Made by a program: the position numbers and the translations under genes. Shown piece by piece: positions 1,980 through 10,637 of a stretch of 10,637 nt of DNA. The notes beneath the pieces were generated by a model, which ran no database searches, was not told the DNA's origin, and saw only the letters and a list, made by a program, of their open reading frames with translations. Position 1 is the stretch's first letter. Every line of letters starts with the position of its first letter. The stretch is from the IMG/VR virus record IMGVR_UViG_2698536379_000029. One strand, written 5' to 3'. The DNA comes from a virus. Lineage: Duplodnaviria; Heunggongvirae; Uroviricota; Caudoviricetes.

Positions 1980-3080
1980 TTATTCCATTTCAAGATCACC
2001 AATTTTCACTTCAAGTTCAATACTGGTCGTAAAACCGTTATCCGGGCTGACGGTATGTGTCAGAGTCGTAATGGTCCATTCCGCATCATCTATTGGCTGT
2101 TTAAAGCCACTGACCTTCACAGGCATTTCCGTGTAGAGATCTGCCCGACCTTCCGCCAGTTGTAGCGAGAATGACGCAACACCGCGTTGCAGGCGTTCCC
2201 ACTGCATTTTCGCCGCTCGTTCGGCGTTGCTCCGGTTGGCATAAGTGCGATTAAGTACCAGCACGTTTTCATCCGTCCCCACCAGATAATCGCCCTGCTT
2301 CGCTTCCGGCTCTTTCTTCTGCTTCTTAGTTCTGCGCTTACGCTTCACCGTGGTGCTTTCTTTCTTCGCGGGTTCGCGGGTATGCAACCAGCTGGCAATG
2401 ACGCCCGTATAGGCTCCGCGATCTGCCAGGGTAAAGCGGTGACTGTCGCCGTCCTTACGCGTGATAGTGATCACCGGCAGTGGTTTACCGCTGGCGCTTT
2501 TGCCCTGTCCCTGCCGGATGAATAACAGATTGCCATTTTTCACCGATGCAATAGCACCGTACTGGCGCGCCAGTCGCATCAGAAAACTGCCGTCACTCTC
2601 ATTGGTCTGGTCTATATGTTCCACGGGTTTATCTGACAGGTCTTTACCCAATGCCATCTTCAGTTTGTGCCGTGCAGCTATTTCCTTCACCACTTCCCCA
2701 ACGGTGGTCTTGTGCCACGACTTTTCACGGCGGGTATTCAGCGTTTCACGAAAATCAGCACTTCGCGCCCGGATAGTCAGGCGGTCCGGTGCGCCAGTGT
2801 GTTCAATCTCGTCCACCGTGAATGCCCCTTTCGGGAAAAGCGGCTGCCCCTTCCAGCCCAGCGCCAGCGTAATAACCGCACCACGGCGCGGCAGCACGAT
2901 TTTTCCGTCGGCGTCGTCCAGCTCCAGATCAAGCTGGTCTGCTTCAAAGCCCCGATTGTCCGTCAGCGTCAAACTCATCAGGCGGTTATCCAGCACAGTG
3001 GTGATATCCCTGCCCTCAATACTGATGCTGAATGCGGGAGTTTTGTTGCCTTTGTTAAGCAGTTCAGAGCTGAAATTCAC
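1980..3080 (-). CDS. D: P2 gpD-like tail protein (late control gene D family), 366 aa
   Basis: Position immediately downstream of U with ATGA start/stop overlap at 3077-3080; size and sequence consistent with P2 gpD. Confidence 0.85.
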   Translation of the reverse strand: MNFSSELLNKGNKTPAFSISIEGRDITTVLDNRLMSLTLTDNRGFEADQLDLELDDADGKIVLPRRGAVITLALGWKGQPLFPKGAFTVDEIEHTGAPDRLTIRARSADFRETLNTRREKSWHKTTVGEVVKEIAARHKLKMALGKDLSDKPVEHIDQTNESDGSFLMRLARQYGAIASVKNGNLLFIRQGQGKSASGKPLPVITITRKDGDSHRFTLADRGAYTGVIASWLHTREPAKKESTTVKRKRRTKKQKKEPEAKQGDYLVGTDENVLVLNRTYANRSNAERAAKMQWERLQRGVASFSLQLAEGRADLYTEMPVKVSGFKQPIDDAEWTITTLTHTVSPDNGFTTSIELEVKIGDLEME

Positions 3081-3562
3081 GACAGCAGCCCTCCCACCGT
3101 TTTACTGATATCGCTTAAGGCAGACGTTGCCGTGTCCTGCAGATTATTCAGTTGCGCACTGAGATCACCGAACATATCGGACAGGGATTCATCCACCCGT
3201 TTGAGCGACAGGGTGAACTCAATCCGGCGCGGCATACCGTCGCGGAAAAACTCCGTTTTAGTCTGATTCAGTCCCTCAATCACATACATGCCGTAAATCG
3301 TGCCGCTGCCTTCAATCAGGGGCCATGCTTTCCCCTGTTCTGCCATCTGCTCCAGTACCAGCAATGACAGCCTGCCGCCTGTTATCTCCGGCATAAGAAC
3401 ACCAGAAAGCGTCAGCATGTCGTTGTCCGGTCCCAGAAACTGCGTGGACGGACGTCGGTTGACCCGGCTGTTTGCCGCATGTCGCCAGCTGCGTTGATAC
3501 TGCAGTTCCTGATACGGCACAGTGCGCAGCATAAACACGTACAATCCCAGCACCATCATCAT
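3077..3562 (-). CDS. U: P2 gpU-like tail protein, 161 aa
   Basis: MMMVLGLYVFMLRTVPYQ... start typical of P2 gpU; overlaps the T stop (3559-3562), suggesting translational coupling; T-U-D order. Confidence 0.85.
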   Translation of the reverse strand: MMMVLGLYVFMLRTVPYQELQYQRSWRHAANSRVNRRPSTQFLGPDNDMLTLSGVLMPEITGGRLSLLVLEQMAEQGKAWPLIEGSGTIYGMYVIEGLNQTKTEFFRDGMPRRIEFTLSLKRVDESLSDMFGDLSAQLNNLQDTATSALSDISKTVGGLLS

Positions 3563-6500
3563 GCGTCGTATCCCCCCTGATCGCTGTAGTTACTCCTGGC
3601 TTTTGCCTTCAGCCTGCGTTCACGTTCATCAAGCTGGCGTGCCACCTCCCGCGCAATATCCTGCGCACTTTGTCCTGGCTGCGTCTGGATGATGATCTGC
3701 GTCGGTGCCTCAATCCGTTGAGCGGGCGGCACAGTGGCTGCACGACTCACCATCGCTTCGCCGCCTTTCGCGGGAAGTGCCAAAGGATGTAACGGCGGAA
3801 GCTCTGCAGGCGCGGCAGCAACGCCCATCATTCCGGCAACAACGGCAGCCAGTGCAGCTGTATTTCTCCGACTGGTCACGTTTGCCGGACCGTTGACAAT
3901 TTCAGGCCCGTTTTCACCGACAATGCCGAACTGCCCGCGCGGGATATAGCCGCCGCTGTCATACATCCCCGCAAAGCCATATCCCCATGACGGAAAACCA
4001 CCCGATGGCATCATCACTTTACCGTCTGCATTCACCGTCGCAGGTTGCTGACGCGTCACGCTTTCCGGCAGTTTCGCCTTTGCAGCCTCTTTACTGACAA
4101 TACCGAGTTTCTCCAGCAACCAGGAAACGCCGGATTTCAGGGAGTCCAACGGATGCATGACCATATTCAGCCCTTCCGCCAGTGCCTCCCCGAATCGTCG
4201 CCCCATTGCCGCTGCGCTCTGCAGTTCGGCAGAGGTCGACTTAACAGGCGTCAGCAGATCAGTAAACCAGCCCCACAACGCCTGTACTTTGTCGCCAATC
4301 CACTGGAACACGGGCTTAAGCGGTTCGAATGCAGCACTGATGGGACCTGCCGCCGCTTTGAATCCTTCCACCACGCCACCGAGAAATGCGGTGATGGGTT
4401 GCCAGTATTTCCAGACAACCAGCGCCACGCCCGCCAGTGCAGTAACCACAAGACCTATCGGACTGAGCAGAGCACCTAACAGACCAGATACGGCATACAG
4501 GGCAACGCGCAGCATCGCCAGCGGACCGGATGCCAGCACACGCAGCACCGCGCCTGCGGCAGCCAGTCCACCGCGTAGTGCTGCCAGTGGATTCATAAAC
4601 ATCACAGCAACCGCACGTAAACCGGATAATCCAGACCGCAACAGTGCAACCGGCACACCTGCTACAGTTTTCAGGACATTCCCCGTCAGTGATGCGGTGC
4701 GGCGCAAAGACGACAACGGCGCAGTAAGTAAACCCGCTGCGTTGCCCGATGAAGCAAGCCCGCGTCGCAGCAGTGCCAGTGGAGCGCCAGCTAACCAGGA
4801 CAACGCGCTGCTGGTTCGTGTTACTGCTGCCGTAACGGAAGGTAACGTTTTGATACCCAGCACAGAGAATCCCAGACGGATGACTGCCAGCGGCCCCAGC
4901 ACTGCAGCCAGCGCCACCGCTAAGGTGCCGAGGCCTACGGTAACCGCAGCCACAACAGCCGCTACTTTCATCAGTGTGCCTGTCAGTTCCGGGTTAGCTT
5001 CCACCCAGCGGCGCAACGCCCCCGTGATGCTTTTTACCGTGTACAGAATATCCATCAGCGGCTGGCGCAGCGTTTCGCCCAGGCTGCTGAAGGTGTTCTG
5101 CGCTCCGGTTTTGACCAGCAACCACTGAGCGGAAAGTGAGTCTTTGTTGATGTCGGATTCTTTCTGCATGGAACCGAGCGCATCATTGCCCGCTGTCAGT
5201 TTTAGCTGGCGCTGCAGTTCCGGAAGGTTGTTTGCCAGTTTCGCTGCATCATCACCAAACTCTTTACCAAACAACATGGTCATGGCAGACAGACGCTTGT
5301 CCTGCGGCAGTGCGTTCACCTTCTCCAGCACACGCTGGATAGTTCCCATCGCATCCTTCGTCATCTGCTTTTCAATCACTTCAGGATTGAGTTTCAGCAG
5401 ATTCATCCCTTCAAAGAAACTCTTACTTTGCATGGTGGCAATGGACAATTCACGCACCATCGCGTTTGCTGCACTGGCAGCAACCTCCGGCGCAGCGCCC
5501 AGTGTCAGGAAGGTGGAACCCAGCGCCGCCGCTTTACGATAATCCAGACGATCTGCCACACCGCCCAGGCGTTGCATGACATCAATGATGTCTGACCCTT
5601 TCGACATGGCGTTATCATCCAGATAGTTCAGCGCATCACCGAGCTGTTCAATATTGCGGGTAGGGATTTTGTAGAGCTGGGCGATTTTCCCCAGACTTTC
5701 TGACAGTTCATCCGCTGGCAGCTCAAAGGCTGTTGCCGCCTTTGCTGCCGTGCTGGCGAAGGCCAGCAGGTCACGTTTCTGGTCTTCCCAGCTGTCGTCA
5801 GGATTTGCGACGTTCATGCGCGCACCACCTTCAACCAGTGCGGCAAAGTCCACAGCACCGTTTTCCATCGGCAACTGTTCGCTGGCAGCCTTGATGGCAT
5901 CCTGCATTTCGTAAAAACGCGCAGTGCGGTTGCCATTATCATCACGCAGACCATTGACCTGCTTTGCCACACCTTTCATGGCATCTTCCATGCTGGTATA
6001 GCTTTTTACTGCTGCCATCACTGGCGCACCCATTGCCAGCCCTGCAGCCGTGGTAGTGGCTCCGGCTCCTGCGATGCGATCGCGCACTTCAAGCCGTCTT
6101 GAGTATTGTTCTCTGGCAGCGTTCATCCGTGCCTGTTGTTCACCCAGACGTTTAAGTGCTTTTTGCTGGCCCTCCAGTGCCTGCCTTGTTTCTTCAGCAT
6201 TTTTCTTAAGTTCTCGCTGGGCACTACTGAGTTGTCTGGTATCAATCCCTGATTCTTTAAGTGCCTGACGTTGTCTCTGGACCGCCCCCAACAAGCCGTT
6301 ATAGGTCTGCTGAAGTTCCTGTACTCGTGTTTTGGCCTGACTGAATAACTTTGCCTGCGCGGCGGTTGGCCTGTTAGTGGCAGCAAATTGTGTGGCGAGT
6401 TTTGCCGCCTCTTCGCGGGCTGCGTTCAGGTTGTTGGCTGTTATGGCTAGTTGCGAGCGCGTCTTGCGAAATTCATCAATTCTGCCAGCCTGCTTATTCA

Positions 6501-6636
6501 GTTCTTTGAGGCTGTTTCGGGTATTCTGAATTGCGCCAGCCAGCTCTTTCGAACTGGCCTGTGCAACACGGAATGGGCGGGTGAGTTTGTCAACCGCATT
6601 AAGAATGACCTGCAGCCGCAGGTTGTTATCACTCAT
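3559..6636 (-). CDS. T: Phage tail tape measure protein (P2 gpT-like), 1025 aa
   Basis: Very long ORF directly after the E/E' chaperone pair; coiled-coil-like N-terminal half (Q/A/R/E/L-rich), repetitive Ala/Leu/Gly-rich hydrophobic central region, C-terminal globular region; start ATG overlaps the E+E' stop (ATGAGTGA). Confidence 0.9.
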   Translation of the reverse strand: MSDNNLRLQVILNAVDKLTRPFRVAQASSKELAGAIQNTRNSLKELNKQAGRIDEFRKTRSQLAITANNLNAAREEAAKLATQFAATNRPTAAQAKLFSQAKTRVQELQQTYNGLLGAVQRQRQALKESGIDTRQLSSAQRELKKNAEETRQALEGQQKALKRLGEQQARMNAAREQYSRRLEVRDRIAGAGATTTAAGLAMGAPVMAAVKSYTSMEDAMKGVAKQVNGLRDDNGNRTARFYEMQDAIKAASEQLPMENGAVDFAALVEGGARMNVANPDDSWEDQKRDLLAFASTAAKAATAFELPADELSESLGKIAQLYKIPTRNIEQLGDALNYLDDNAMSKGSDIIDVMQRLGGVADRLDYRKAAALGSTFLTLGAAPEVAASAANAMVRELSIATMQSKSFFEGMNLLKLNPEVIEKQMTKDAMGTIQRVLEKVNALPQDKRLSAMTMLFGKEFGDDAAKLANNLPELQRQLKLTAGNDALGSMQKESDINKDSLSAQWLLVKTGAQNTFSSLGETLRQPLMDILYTVKSITGALRRWVEANPELTGTLMKVAAVVAAVTVGLGTLAVALAAVLGPLAVIRLGFSVLGIKTLPSVTAAVTRTSSALSWLAGAPLALLRRGLASSGNAAGLLTAPLSSLRRTASLTGNVLKTVAGVPVALLRSGLSGLRAVAVMFMNPLAALRGGLAAAGAVLRVLASGPLAMLRVALYAVSGLLGALLSPIGLVVTALAGVALVVWKYWQPITAFLGGVVEGFKAAAGPISAAFEPLKPVFQWIGDKVQALWGWFTDLLTPVKSTSAELQSAAAMGRRFGEALAEGLNMVMHPLDSLKSGVSWLLEKLGIVSKEAAKAKLPESVTRQQPATVNADGKVMMPSGGFPSWGYGFAGMYDSGGYIPRGQFGIVGENGPEIVNGPANVTSRRNTAALAAVVAGMMGVAAAPAELPPLHPLALPAKGGEAMVSRAATVPPAQRIEAPTQIIIQTQPGQSAQDIAREVARQLDERERRLKAKARSNYSDQGGYDA

Positions 6637-7119: not shown

Positions 7120-7635
7120 TCAGAGGCCGAGGGCGTTGCGGTGCGCTTCCATCAGGTCCACACCGTCCACAATTTCCACCATGTTGATAAGGTCCACTTC
7201 ATAGAGCACCTCACCATTGATGGTCAGCTTCGCGTAGCTGTTGGTACTGGTCACTTTGGTGGTGTTGCTTTCGCCCGTCTTCCACTCGCCGGAATCCACT
7301 TCTTTGTGACGTCCACGCACCACAAGCTCCACGGCCTGCACTTCCCCGGTATCGTCACGCTGGATAGAGCCGGTAAAGCGCAGCTGAATGCCATCTACCG
7401 TGGCTTTGCCCATCTGCTTAAACAGCAGCAGTTCAGTACCACCAATGGAAAATTCTGTGTCCAGCGCACTGTCATCAAGCCCCAGATCCACATCCACTGC
7501 ACCCGGCATTCCGCCGCCGCGATACTTCTCATATTTGCGGGTGAATTTCGGCAGCGTCAGCGACTCAACGATCCCCTGCCAGTTGTTCCCGTCGTTAAAC
7601 AGGTTCAGATGTTTTAATTTGCGTGGTAAAGCCAT
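7120..7635 (-). CDS. FII: Tail tube protein (P2 gpFII-like), 171 aa
   Basis: MALPRKLKHLNLF... N-terminus and length characteristic of P2 FII; lies 9 bp downstream of FI. Confidence 0.9.
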   Translation of the reverse strand: MALPRKLKHLNLFNDGNNWQGIVESLTLPKFTRKYEKYRGGGMPGAVDVDLGLDDSALDTEFSIGGTELLLFKQMGKATVDGIQLRFTGSIQRDDTGEVQAVELVVRGRHKEVDSGEWKTGESNTTKVTSTNSYAKLTINGEVLYEVDLINMVEIVDGVDLMEAHRNALGL

Positions 7636-7644
7636 GTTGTCCCC

Positions 7645-8817
7645 TTACGCGCTGACCTGGCTGGCGAAATTCACCAGGTACTGATCGGTGATGCGCTGGC
7701 GCAGCATCAGATTTTCAAGTGGCGGCACTGGCGTGTAGTCATAGTCGATGGTGAGTTTTCCGGCTTTCAGCGTGTCTTTGTCGTTCACCGACTCATCCAG
7801 CCAGCAATCACCACCAATGAGATAGCCCTGACTGACCAGGCTGCGTATTTTGGCGCGGATACCTTCGATAATGTCGCGGGCCAGCGACGGGTTAAGCGGT
7901 TTATCCACCGCCCACATGTGTGCTTCTGCCATTGTGTCCGTCAGCACCTGCGCCGTGCGGGTGTAGTTTTCGAAGGCAAAAAGCGGATCATCGCTCAGAC
8001 AGCGGGAACCCCAGAAGCGGAAACCGTCTTTACGCACAAGCGTGGTGACGTCGTTCTGGTTCAGCAGACCTGCATCGGTTGCCGGGTCCTGCAGATCCCA
8101 GAACACATCTGCAGAAATTCCGGTGACACCGTTCACGCCCACGTTGGACAGGCTTTTGTGCCACCCGGTCTGCTCATCAATTTTGGCACGCAGACCAAGT
8201 GCACGGGCGGTGGCATATGCCGTTGCTTCGGCATTCAGCACCGTGTCCCAGCCAGTAAAGTCGGGCCAGATCAGCATTCCTTCGCGCTGGCTGAAGTTTT
8301 CACGGTAAGTGATCGCCTCCTGTACCGTCTTGCAGCCATACGCTGACAGGTAAGCAAACCCACGCAGGCTTTGCGCCACGCTCAGCAACTCAGTCGCAAC
8401 GGCTTTGTTATCGTGACCTGGCACGCCGAGAATGCGCGGTTTAACGCCGAGCTGTGACTGGGCAGATAACAGAGCTTTCATGCCTGTTTTTTTACCTTCA
8501 GCAGTCACTGCGCCGATGATATTGGTCGTGGTTTCTTCTTCCGTTTCACCCTGCGGCACACGCACAACAACGGTCACGGGTTTTGCCTGGTCAGCGATGG
8601 CATCCAGCGAACGGGCCAGCGTGCCGGACTCACCCGCTTTACCGCTGGCAGTCAGCACATCAGTGATCAGCACAGGTTTGTTAAGAGGAAACATTTTTGC
8701 ATCGGCATCATCGCCCGTGCAGACCATGCCCACGATGGCGGTGCTCACCGTGGTAATGGATCGGGTGCCTTCGTTGACTTCAACAACGCGCACCCCGTGG
8801 TGGTAATCCTGAGCCAT
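7645..8817 (-). CDS. FI: Contractile tail sheath protein (P2 gpFI-like), 390 aa
   Basis: Length and sequence characteristic of Myoviridae sheath protein; strong SD (AGGAGG) 6-11 nt upstream of ATG 8817; first gene of the FI-FII-E-T-U-D operon. Confidence 0.9.
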
Positions 8818-8893
8818 AGTGGCGAACCTCCTGATTGGATTAGGCTTCGCCCTATGTTGAAGTGATTGTGCCTGACAAACAGCTAAGCGCAGT

Positions 8894-8911
8894 TGTACCG
8901 TTATTCACACA
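8894..8911 (-). promoter_or_regulatory. Candidate Ogr-dependent late promoter element (TGT-N12-ACA dyad) for the FI operon
   Basis: TGT ACCGTTATTCAC ACA at 8894-8911, centred about 85 bp upstream of the FI ATG, compatible with the P2 late-promoter dyad centred near -55 plus a roughly 30-nt leader; no clear -10 identified. Confidence 0.35.
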
Positions 8912-8921
8912 AAATGACGGT

Positions 8922-9526
8922 ATTTGTCTACTTGCAGGGATAATCAAAATAATGCTGATTCAGGGGGATTCATTACTCTTATTTGCCGGAAATTTTCTAT
9001 AAATTGTGGAAACACCCACATCAAAAATCAGTGCAATACGCTGTCTTGATTCTCCGGCCTCGAGTAAACGCCCAATCTGTGCCCACTGTTCGGTGGTCAA
9101 CTTAGGACGGCGTCCACCTACTCTGCCTTTGGCACGAGCTGCAGCCAGCCCTGCCCTGGTACGTTCAACTATCAGTTCGCGTTCCATTTCAGCCAGGGCA
9201 CCCATGACATGAAAAAAGAAACGGCCCATTGGGGTACTGGTATCAATACTGTCAGTCAGGCTTCGGAAATTCACACCACGCTGGCGCAACTCCTCTATCA
9301 GCGTAACAAGATGCCGCATACTGCGCCCCAACCTGTCCAGCTTCCAGACAACCAGCGTGTCTCCTGCCGATAGTGTCCTGAGCAGCTTTTTCAGCCCCGG
9401 TCTGTCGGACTTAGTGCCACTGATTTTATCCTCAAAAATCCGCTCACATCCCGCGCAGTTCAGTGCATTACGTTGCAAATCGGTGTTCTGGTCATTTGTT
9501 GACACGCGTACATAGCCAATAAGCAT
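8922..9526. repeat. Direct repeat copy A (at least 605 bp, period 1111 bp)
   Basis: 8922..9526 is identical base for base to 10033..10637 in my reading; identity starts one base after a t/a mismatch at 8921/10032. Confidence 0.9.
8960..9526 (-). CDS. Site-specific DNA invertase, serine recombinase of the Pin/Gin/Cin/Hin family, 188 aa (copy 1)
   Basis: MLIGYVRVSTNDQNTDLQRNAL... with the catalytic Ser in the YVRVST motif and a C-terminal HTH (GVSTIYRKFPA); strongly resembles E. coli Pin / Mu Gin as I recall them. Two in-frame ATGs lie upstream (9532 and 9526); I chose 9526 by family alignment. Confidence 0.9.
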   Translation of the reverse strand: MLIGYVRVSTNDQNTDLQRNALNCAGCERIFEDKISGTKSDRPGLKKLLRTLSAGDTLVVWKLDRLGRSMRHLVTLIEELRQRGVNFRSLTDSIDTSTPMGRFFFHVMGALAEMERELIVERTRAGLAAARAKGRVGGRRPKLTTEQWAQIGRLLEAGESRQRIALIFDVGVSTIYRKFPANKSNESP

Positions 9527-9553
9527 GATCATCCCCCTGAATAAAAACCGGAG

Positions 9554-9952
9554 ATGATGCCAGTTAGCCGTTATCTCTGCATTTTCATAAACGTTGGTTT
9601 GGGAGAAGCGGCGAAAAGGGATGTGGGCACAGGAGATAATCAGATACCGGATATGGGAGCATTCGCTTCTGGTTCGGGATGGTTCAGGCTACCAGGTGGA
9701 TATATTGTTCAGTTTGGCACTTTTGCAGGAAACACGACCCGCTTTATCAGTGGACACTTCCCTATACCATTCCCTAATCAGCCGATGGTTTCAGTCAGTG
9801 TTATGTCTGATGCCGTTCAGTCAGACCCGTCGATTCCTGCCCCGCAGGTTTTGTCTGTAAATTTTGAACATATCAGTAATTCAGCGTGGCGTGTGGCAAC
9901 CAGTGATATCTCACAGCAATACAGATTCAGTTATATTTCGATAGGACGGTAG
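9554..9952 (+). CDS. Promoterless tail-fibre C-terminal (receptor-binding) cassette in silent orientation; true coding part probably begins at the crossover site
   Basis: ORF reads through the crossover site and away from the invertase; contains a tail-fibre-tip-like motif (GWFRLPGGYIVQFG); followed 2 bp later by the ATG of a tail-fibre assembly gene, the Sv'-U' arrangement of Mu/P1 invertible segments. It is on the opposite strand to the late operon, so not expressed as arranged. Confidence 0.45.
   Translation: MMPVSRYLCIFINVGLGEAAKRDVGTGDNQIPDMGAFASGSGWFRLPGGYIVQFGTFAGNTTRFISGHFPIPFPNQPMVSVSVMSDAVQSDPSIPAPQVLSVNFEHISNSAWRVATSDISQQYRFSYISIGR
9583..9608. other. Candidate 26-bp recombination crossover site (hix/gix/cix-like)
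   Basis: TTTTCATAAACG TT GGTTTGGGAGAA: two imperfect inverted 12-bp half-sites around a 2-bp core, fitting the pattern TT-TC--AAAC(C)--GGTTT--GA-AA; about 55 bp upstream of the invertase start, as for gixR-gin and cix-cin. Confidence 0.5.
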
Positions 9953-9954
9953 AA

Positions 9955-10113
9955 ATGCAGAAATATATTTTCAGTGCCGATAAAAATGCGTTTTTCCCTG
10001 TGGAGCTTAAAATCGCTTATCAGGAATCCGGAATTTGTCTACTTGCAGGGATAATCAAAATAATGCTGATTCAGGGGGATTCATTACTCTTATTTGCCGG
10101 AAATTTTCTATAA
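9955..10113 (+). pseudogene. Tail-fibre assembly protein (Tfa/gpG/U-like) 5' fragment, truncated at the duplication junction
   Basis: MQKYIFSADKNAFFPVELKIAYQESG... resembles Tfa N-termini; after codon 26 (position 10032/10033) the frame runs into the repeated invertase-downstream sequence and stops at 10113. Confidence 0.4.
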
Positions 10114-10637
10114 ATTGTGGAAACACCCACATCAAAAATCAGTGCAATACGCTGTCTTGATTCTCCGGCCTCGAGTAAACGCCCAATCTGTGCCCACTGT
10201 TCGGTGGTCAACTTAGGACGGCGTCCACCTACTCTGCCTTTGGCACGAGCTGCAGCCAGCCCTGCCCTGGTACGTTCAACTATCAGTTCGCGTTCCATTT
10301 CAGCCAGGGCACCCATGACATGAAAAAAGAAACGGCCCATTGGGGTACTGGTATCAATACTGTCAGTCAGGCTTCGGAAATTCACACCACGCTGGCGCAA
10401 CTCCTCTATCAGCGTAACAAGATGCCGCATACTGCGCCCCAACCTGTCCAGCTTCCAGACAACCAGCGTGTCTCCTGCCGATAGTGTCCTGAGCAGCTTT
10501 TTCAGCCCCGGTCTGTCGGACTTAGTGCCACTGATTTTATCCTCAAAAATCCGCTCACATCCCGCGCAGTTCAGTGCATTACGTTGCAAATCGGTGTTCT
10601 GGTCATTTGTTGACACGCGTACATAGCCAATAAGCAT
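10033..10637. repeat. Direct repeat copy B (truncated by the window end)
   Basis: See copy A; whether identity continues past 10637 (a full 1111-bp tandem unit) cannot be seen here. Confidence 0.9.
10071..10637 (-). CDS. Site-specific DNA invertase, Pin/Gin/Hin family, 188 aa (copy 2, identical to copy 1)
   Basis: Nucleotide-identical to 8960..9526; its ATG is the last three bases of the window (10635-10637). Confidence 0.85.
   Translation of the reverse strand: MLIGYVRVSTNDQNTDLQRNALNCAGCERIFEDKISGTKSDRPGLKKLLRTLSAGDTLVVWKLDRLGRSMRHLVTLIEELRQRGVNFRSLTDSIDTSTPMGRFFFHVMGALAEMERELIVERTRAGLAAARAKGRVGGRRPKLTTEQWAQIGRLLEAGESRQRIALIFDVGVSTIYRKFPANKSNESP

Follow-up and report, generated by a model that had tools for sequence, protein, structure and literature searches.

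Invertible tail-fibre segments driven by Pin, Gin or Cin are already known and belong to the textbook examples of site-specific inversion. The segments of phages Mu and P1 are about 3 and 4.2 kb in length, respectively. They carry two opposed sets, each composed of a fibre C-terminus and an assembly gene, and the constant N-terminal part of the fibre is encoded outside the segment. Dependence on Fis and an enhancer has been documented for Gin, Cin and Hin. In E. coli K-12, the P segment of e14 has the order stfP-tfaP-tfaE-stfE-pinE.

We analyzed a DNA stretch of 10,637 nt (hereafter, the window), in which a serine invertase gene appears twice and a fibre-tip ORF lies between the two copies. 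The most probable reading, to which we assign a probability of roughly 85%, is that a P2-like prophage inserted at ssrA contains an invertible tail-fibre segment of the Pin/Gin/Cin type, of which this region is the invertase-proximal off half, and that the duplication is a scaffolding artefact.

The P2-like prophage at ssrA

The window opens at the smpB ATG and continues into the right arm of a P2-like prophage. The genes on the left of the invertase region are as follows.

1-483: smpB
698-1060: ssrA, the tmRNA gene, encoding the tag peptide ANDENYALAA
1184-1666, plus strand: small cargo ORF of 160 aa, between ssrA and ogr at the prophage end
minus strand: ogr, in the right arm of the P2-like prophage
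1980-3080, minus strand: D, P2-like late tail gene
3077-3562, minus strand: U, P2-like late tail gene
3559-6636, minus strand: T, tape measure gene of the P2-like right arm
minus strand, between T and FII: E and E+E', P2-like right arm
7120-7635, minus strand: FII, tube gene
7645-8817, minus strand: FI, sheath gene
8894-8911, minus strand: putative promoter dyad TGT-N12-ACA, about 85 nt upstream of FI

The ogr-proximal end of the prophage adjoins ssrA, which is located directly to its left. Thus, ssrA is the attachment site of the P2-like prophage. The product of the ORF at 1184-1666 matched phrog_2561 ('DNA ligase') at 2.5e-77. Weak Pfam matches to BRCT domains (9e-4, below the cut-off) and a weak PADLOC match (1.7e-7) to the C-terminus of the candidate defence protein PDC-S48 were also obtained. 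From these matches, the ORF looks like a BRCT-only cargo gene.

The dyad at 8894-8911 was read from the sequence. It fits the motif of the Ogr-dependent P2 late promoters, and is likely a late promoter element of the P_F type. Since this predicted element is located just outside the repeated block described below, the native left-hand context is present only at the first invertase copy.

The invertase, the crossover site and the silent tip cassette

The features from the invertase gene to the right end of the window are as follows.

8960-9526, minus strand: pin-type serine DNA invertase of 188 aa, with the catalytic Ser9 in YVRVSTNDQ
9554-9952, plus strand: silent cassette with a gp53-like tail-fibre C-terminal tip, 132-aa ORF, assigned by Pfam and PHROG
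9582-9607: pixR, 26-bp crossover site TTTTCATAAACG-TT-GGTTTGGGAGAA, next to the invertase and before the tip
9955-10031, plus strand: 5' end of tfa', codons 1-26, in the off orientation; codon 26 has the N at 10032 as its third base
10032: scaffold gap, N in the public record and A in the window
10033-10637, minus strand: second representation of the invertase with 38 nt of its 3' flank, an exact copy of 8922-9526

In the Pfam profile search, the invertase gave the Resolvase domain (2.3e-53) and a C-terminal HTH_7 domain (1.5e-15). The Ser9 nucleophile was seen in its translation (YVRVS9TNDQ), and use of the alternative start at 9532 gives a protein of 190 aa. The protein shares 87% identity with PinE of e14, and matched the phrog_125 DNA invertase (8.8e-101). 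The structure of Gin (3UJ3) matched residues 1-184 (E 7.9e-93). The enzyme is a small serine recombinase of the kind found in the Hin/Gin/Cin/Pin switches. By analogy with Gin, Cin and Hin, a Fis-dependent enhancer would be expected in the 5' part of its gene.

The initial annotation, which was made from the window alone, had proposed that the plus-strand ORF carries a fibre-tip-like motif, that the following ORF is the start of a Tfa-like gene, and that both represent an off-orientation receptor-binding variant on the strand opposite to the late operon. These proposals agree with the results of the searches. The 132-aa ORF matched Gp53-like_C (PF21882) with 36.9 bits against a cut-off of 24.9 (E 5e-9), and its residues 45-132 covered the whole profile. 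It was also aligned to positions 399-533 of the 534 positions of phrog_2557 (E 5e-38). Its matches to tail-fibre PHROGs generally correspond to the last ~130 positions of long profiles. The ORF therefore has Gp53-like_C at the extreme C-terminus of a fibre protein, as a gp53-like tip does, and from the profile alignments it appears to be a fibre C-terminus without the N-terminus. No significant match was obtained for the tip in a PDB sequence search, in which the best hit was a short tail fibre (E 0.46).

The annotated ATG of the tip, at 9554, falls in the spacer between pin and pix. The functional cassette starts at the crossover site, around position 9596, with the motif GLGEAAKRDVG. The tip needs fusion to the constant part of the fibre gene H in order to function. 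Such a fusion exists in nature: among 5,426 complete E. coli genomes, 39, including PEC1011, have the same tip joined in frame to the constant H portion, in agreement with the proposed off-orientation variant. When 8780-10120 was scanned for promoters and terminators, the counts did not exceed those obtained for shuffled sequences, and for the silent cassette no promoter was convincing.

The ORF at 9955 opens with MQKYIFSADKNAFFPVELKIAYQESG. Its residues 1-26 are identical (26/26) to those of the intact 146-aa Tfa proteins of the loci L001, L009 and L010, and this intact relative matched Caudo_TAP (PF02413) over residues 9-141 (E 4.5e-35). The ORF in the window has 52 codons, only the first 26 of which come from the 146-aa parent, and the Pfam search gave no match for it. 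Thus, the ORF at 9955 appears to be a Tfa gene, of which the window fragment lacks nearly all of the Caudo_TAP domain. The late tail genes (D, U, T, E, FII and FI) are encoded on one strand, and the tip ORF and tfa' on the other.

The outer half of pixR is specific to the pin side, and the inner half is common to pixL in the fibre gene. An inverted partner of pixR is present inside H, about 1.8 kb away, in L009 and L010, in L001, in L006 and in e14; in the source contig, the partner falls beyond the contig end. Two inverted 26-bp sites thus appear to flank the segment. When eight pix sites from four elements were aligned, reciprocal exchange of the outer and inner flanks was observed, and the exact core common to pixL and pixR was 15 nt. 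In the pairwise comparison of GPEC1222 and PEC1011, the flanks were collinear and the interior of the segment was inverted. Complete genomes contain the segment in either orientation, and the sites show reciprocal exchange. Among the 5,426 complete E. coli genomes, pin-pixR is followed by the gp53-like tip in 125 genomes and by the collar tip in 994 genomes. The region 9554-10032 is the off half of this invertible segment.

The order FI(-), invertase(-), tip(+), tfa(+), tfa(-), H(-), I(-), J(-) was found in GPEC1222, FDAARGOS_1372 and Klebsiella phage KP12. The gene order from FI to J is the same in two draft assemblies encoding the identical 132-aa tip. H of GPEC1222 ends in a collar-domain tip (...YLGLGEGSALPVGVPVPWPS...). 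H of PEC1011 (468 aa) ends in the gp53-like tip, and the 146-aa tfa comes next; beside the invertase, this genome has the collar tip and tfaE in reverse.

From these arrangements, the native order in the direction of late transcription would be the constant part of H, pixL, tip A (collar), tfaE, tfa' (reverse), tip B (gp53-like, reverse), pixR, pin, the P_F promoter and FI. Pin would recombine the two inverted 26-bp pix sites, and the ~1.8-kb segment would flip. H would then receive one of the two tips, A or B, in frame, and would be transcribed as part of the late operon together with the matching assembly gene (tfaE for tip A, tfa' for tip B), while the unselected pair would stay promoterless and antisense. 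Switching of the tip would change the receptor specificity and may thereby affect the host range.

Other tips were also observed at this position. L005 (NZ_CP096837.1, 5955-7637) has the same constant part of H and the same pix site with a third, glycine-rich tip (...GLGEGSFGFRNLV...GGGGGGGG...), and FDAARGOS_1372 (L002) has yet another tip pair. The cassette position bounded by pix seems to accept many unrelated tips. In the prophage of E. coli JNEC-KY202 (L004, NZ_AP045178.1, 4058-6900), pin, the collar tip, tfaE, a reverse tfa and a reverse 131-aa ORF are followed directly by early-region genes (a regulator and CII); neither the upstream late genes nor the constant part of H is present in this prophage. 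The arrangement could be a deletion ending at or near pixL.

The junction at position 10032

An exact direct repeat of 605 nt (8922-9526 and 10033-10637, with a period of 1111 nt) carries the invertase gene. The window corresponds to the last 10.9 kb of contig CYAE01000039.1 (GCA_001277435.1), and the sole difference is at position 10032, which is A in the window and N in the record. This N is the only one in the 10.9 kb. It is the last base of tfa' codon 26 and directly precedes the repeat. The N in the record indicates that the join between tfa' and the 3' flank of the invertase is a scaffold gap and not determined sequence. Apparently, the ambiguity code was replaced by a normal base in the window, and the gap was hidden. 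The junction reads GAATCCGG-x-ATTTGTCTAC in the window, whereas the native continuation of tfa' reads GAATCCGGCGAATGGCCC; past 10032, the native gene would continue with CGAATGGCCCGATGATGG....

The source contig extends 232 nt past the window and the second pin, and then ends. Within this extension, the second copy has 82 further bases identical to the first, through pixR, so that the two copies are identical over 687 nt including the pin-pix spacer and the pix core. Directly after the core TTGGTTTGGGAGAAG, the copies diverge: copy 1 leads into the gp53-like tip, and copy 2 into the tip of the collar type. From the shared pix core to its end, the source contig has 165 nt that agree at every position with the reverse-complemented H of L009 and L010 (165/165). 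Both of these loci encode the identical 132-aa tip, and they match the source over 4478 of 4478 nt as far as the last base ahead of the N. Each carries a single pin, tfaE, the intact 146-aa Tfa with Caudo_TAP and an H whose end is the collar tip. The prophage is present at 100% identity in GCA_006679645.1 and GCA_027382705.1.

These results bear on the remaining part of the initial annotation, according to which tfa is truncated by a duplication after 26 codons between two invertase copies, and the phage may lack the chaperone for the alternative fibre. The two copies do exist in the window as an exact repeat, but they are joined only at the N of the source record. The break in tfa' coincides with this N, and the truncation could not be upheld. 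Neither could the missing chaperone: the 24 examined contigs with the identical tip fell into two gene contexts, and all of them have a single invertase and the intact 146-aa Tfa. An intact gene, which the annotation had allowed for beyond the window, was found in L009 and L010, and rightward extension of the source record led through the second invertase copy to the collar tip. The second pin copy and the tfa' cut after 26 codons are, with high probability, features of the draft scaffold and not of the genome.

The artefact could have arisen as follows. The scaffold would consist of two blocks joined by a single N, which represent both inversion states of one locus. Block 1 (...FI-pin-pixR-tipB-tfa', the last over 78 nt) would represent one orientation, and block 2 (pin flank-pin-pixR-tipA...) the other. 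Block 2 would derive from a culture of mixed orientation. In such a culture, flipped cells would yield read pairs that link the pin region to the collar tip, and the scaffolder would place that contig second. A gap-filler would then extend both edges and, being unable to merge them, leave an N. The divergence of the copies exactly at the pix core fits this explanation, since this is the point where two inversion states of one locus must differ. Furthermore, because pixL and pixR have only 15 exact bases in common, the flipped junction would need reads from flipped molecules, and its invention by a k-mer assembler seems unlikely.

Where a gap is unmerged or negative, a single N is probably what SSPACE and GapFiller leave behind. 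According to the GapFiller paper, a gap is closed only where the extensions from its two sides merge and their result fits the gap size that was estimated; otherwise, Ns remain. No statement on when a single N is left was found in the GapFiller and gapFinisher papers.

Block 2 might also have been misplaced from a separate second prophage with an identical invertase and a collar tip beside pin, in which case no subpopulation with the same segment flipped was present. Many E. coli genomes have several pin-type loci, with up to 7-10 matching places per genome, and repeats common to prophages often cause mis-scaffolding. However, both blocks are 100% identical to one prophage (L009, L010), including the non-coding pin-pix spacer and the 165 nt of the collar tip, whereas prophages of the pin/pix type usually differ by 2-3%. 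Moreover, within a single segment the gp53-like tip is regularly paired with the collar tip. We therefore regard a second prophage as quite unlikely.

The window itself shows a clean direct repeat, as a genuine tandem duplication of 1,111 bp would. Such a unit would contain the pin flank, pin, pixR, the gp53-like tip and the first 78 nt of tfa', and its origin would be a microhomology of CGG; the N would be a mere ambiguous base call. The CGG directly before the N also precedes the repeat in copy 1, so that it is common to both repeat boundaries. This could be a hint of a real, microhomology-mediated junction, although three such bases agree by chance in 1 of 64 cases. The remainder of the invertible segment, at present flipped, would be joined to the distal unit, and the locus would have two pin genes and three pix sites. 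The sequence past the second pixR is compatible with duplication followed by inversion; the sequences flanking the N would be no different after a real duplication in which the distal unit was then inverted.

Against this, the only N in the 10.9 kb is placed exactly on the junction, and the contig ends shortly after the second pin. No unbroken determined sequence runs over the novel junction. Exact repeats of 605-687 nt are normally collapsed, not resolved, by short-read assemblers. In addition, the junction was not found elsewhere in the collections searched. The exact junction 33-mer was detected neither in the GTDB species representatives nor in IMG/VR, and a 191-nt junction query gave no junction-spanning match in the 5,426 complete E. 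coli genomes. In an exact-protein look-up, the chimeric 52-aa ORF was recorded on one contig only, CYAE01000039.1. The single pin in each of the 24 contigs mentioned above is also contrary to a duplication. On this evidence, a genuine tandem duplication is very unlikely.

The repeat start (8918/8922) was also considered as a natural homology boundary, because matches to the junction query begin at query position 90. This was uninformative: the left half of the query is tfa', and matches to the pin flank must begin there.

A lysogen that really has a tandem second pin, a third pix site and a gp53-like tip with a tfa' stub stranded between the pins is hardly to be expected. If the duplication were true, a two-state switch would have become a multi-site inversion and deletion system, loosely like Min of p15B, and a route by which silent fibre cassettes become orphaned would be visible.

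Under the preferred reading, a scaffolding artefact from two inversion states, the lone N presented as a normal base produced a false story of a duplication and a truncated chaperone. Tandem repeats in draft contigs that are bounded by an ambiguous base should thus be checked against the source record. The artefact is informative in itself. The presence of both pin-side junctions in one scaffold suggests a culture of mixed orientation, and most likely the sequenced culture contained both orientations. Since both orientations in one culture imply an active switch, Pin switching is probably active in the lysogen.

Comparison with described inversion systems

The gene order of the e14 P segment is the same as that of the native segment deduced here. 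The crossover sites are nearly identical, and the e14 pixR matches the site in the window through TTTTCATAAACGTTGGTTTGGGAGAAG. The silent stfE cassette of e14 is of the collar type, like the partner tip here, whereas the silent tip in the window is gp53-like. The surroundings also differ: e14 is located at icd and has mcrA after pin, whereas the present P2-like prophage is located at ssrA with intact tail genes, and pin is followed by the predicted P_F promoter region and the sheath gene FI.

In the G segment of Mu with Gin and the C segment of P1 with Cin, the invertase gene is located just outside the segment, as here. The segment of ~1.8 kb is smaller than those of Mu and P1, and the phage backbones differ.

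In some P2-like phages and prophages, among them KP12 and Cartapus, the invertase is located between FI and the fibre genes. Klebsiella phage KP12 (OM835953) shows 98.2% identity over window positions 8818-10031, and Escherichia phage Cartapus shows 98.6% identity over the first 839 nt only of the same region. The KP12 annotation lists sheath, DNA invertase, tail fiber assembly protein, reverse tail fiber assembly protein and tail fiber protein. Annotated copies of the exact prophage module exist in phage records and in hundreds of E. coli genomes, and the locus adds little to the known biology. The records of the KP12 type differ from the window in having one invertase and an intact 146-aa Tfa; otherwise, the two show no biologically substantial difference.
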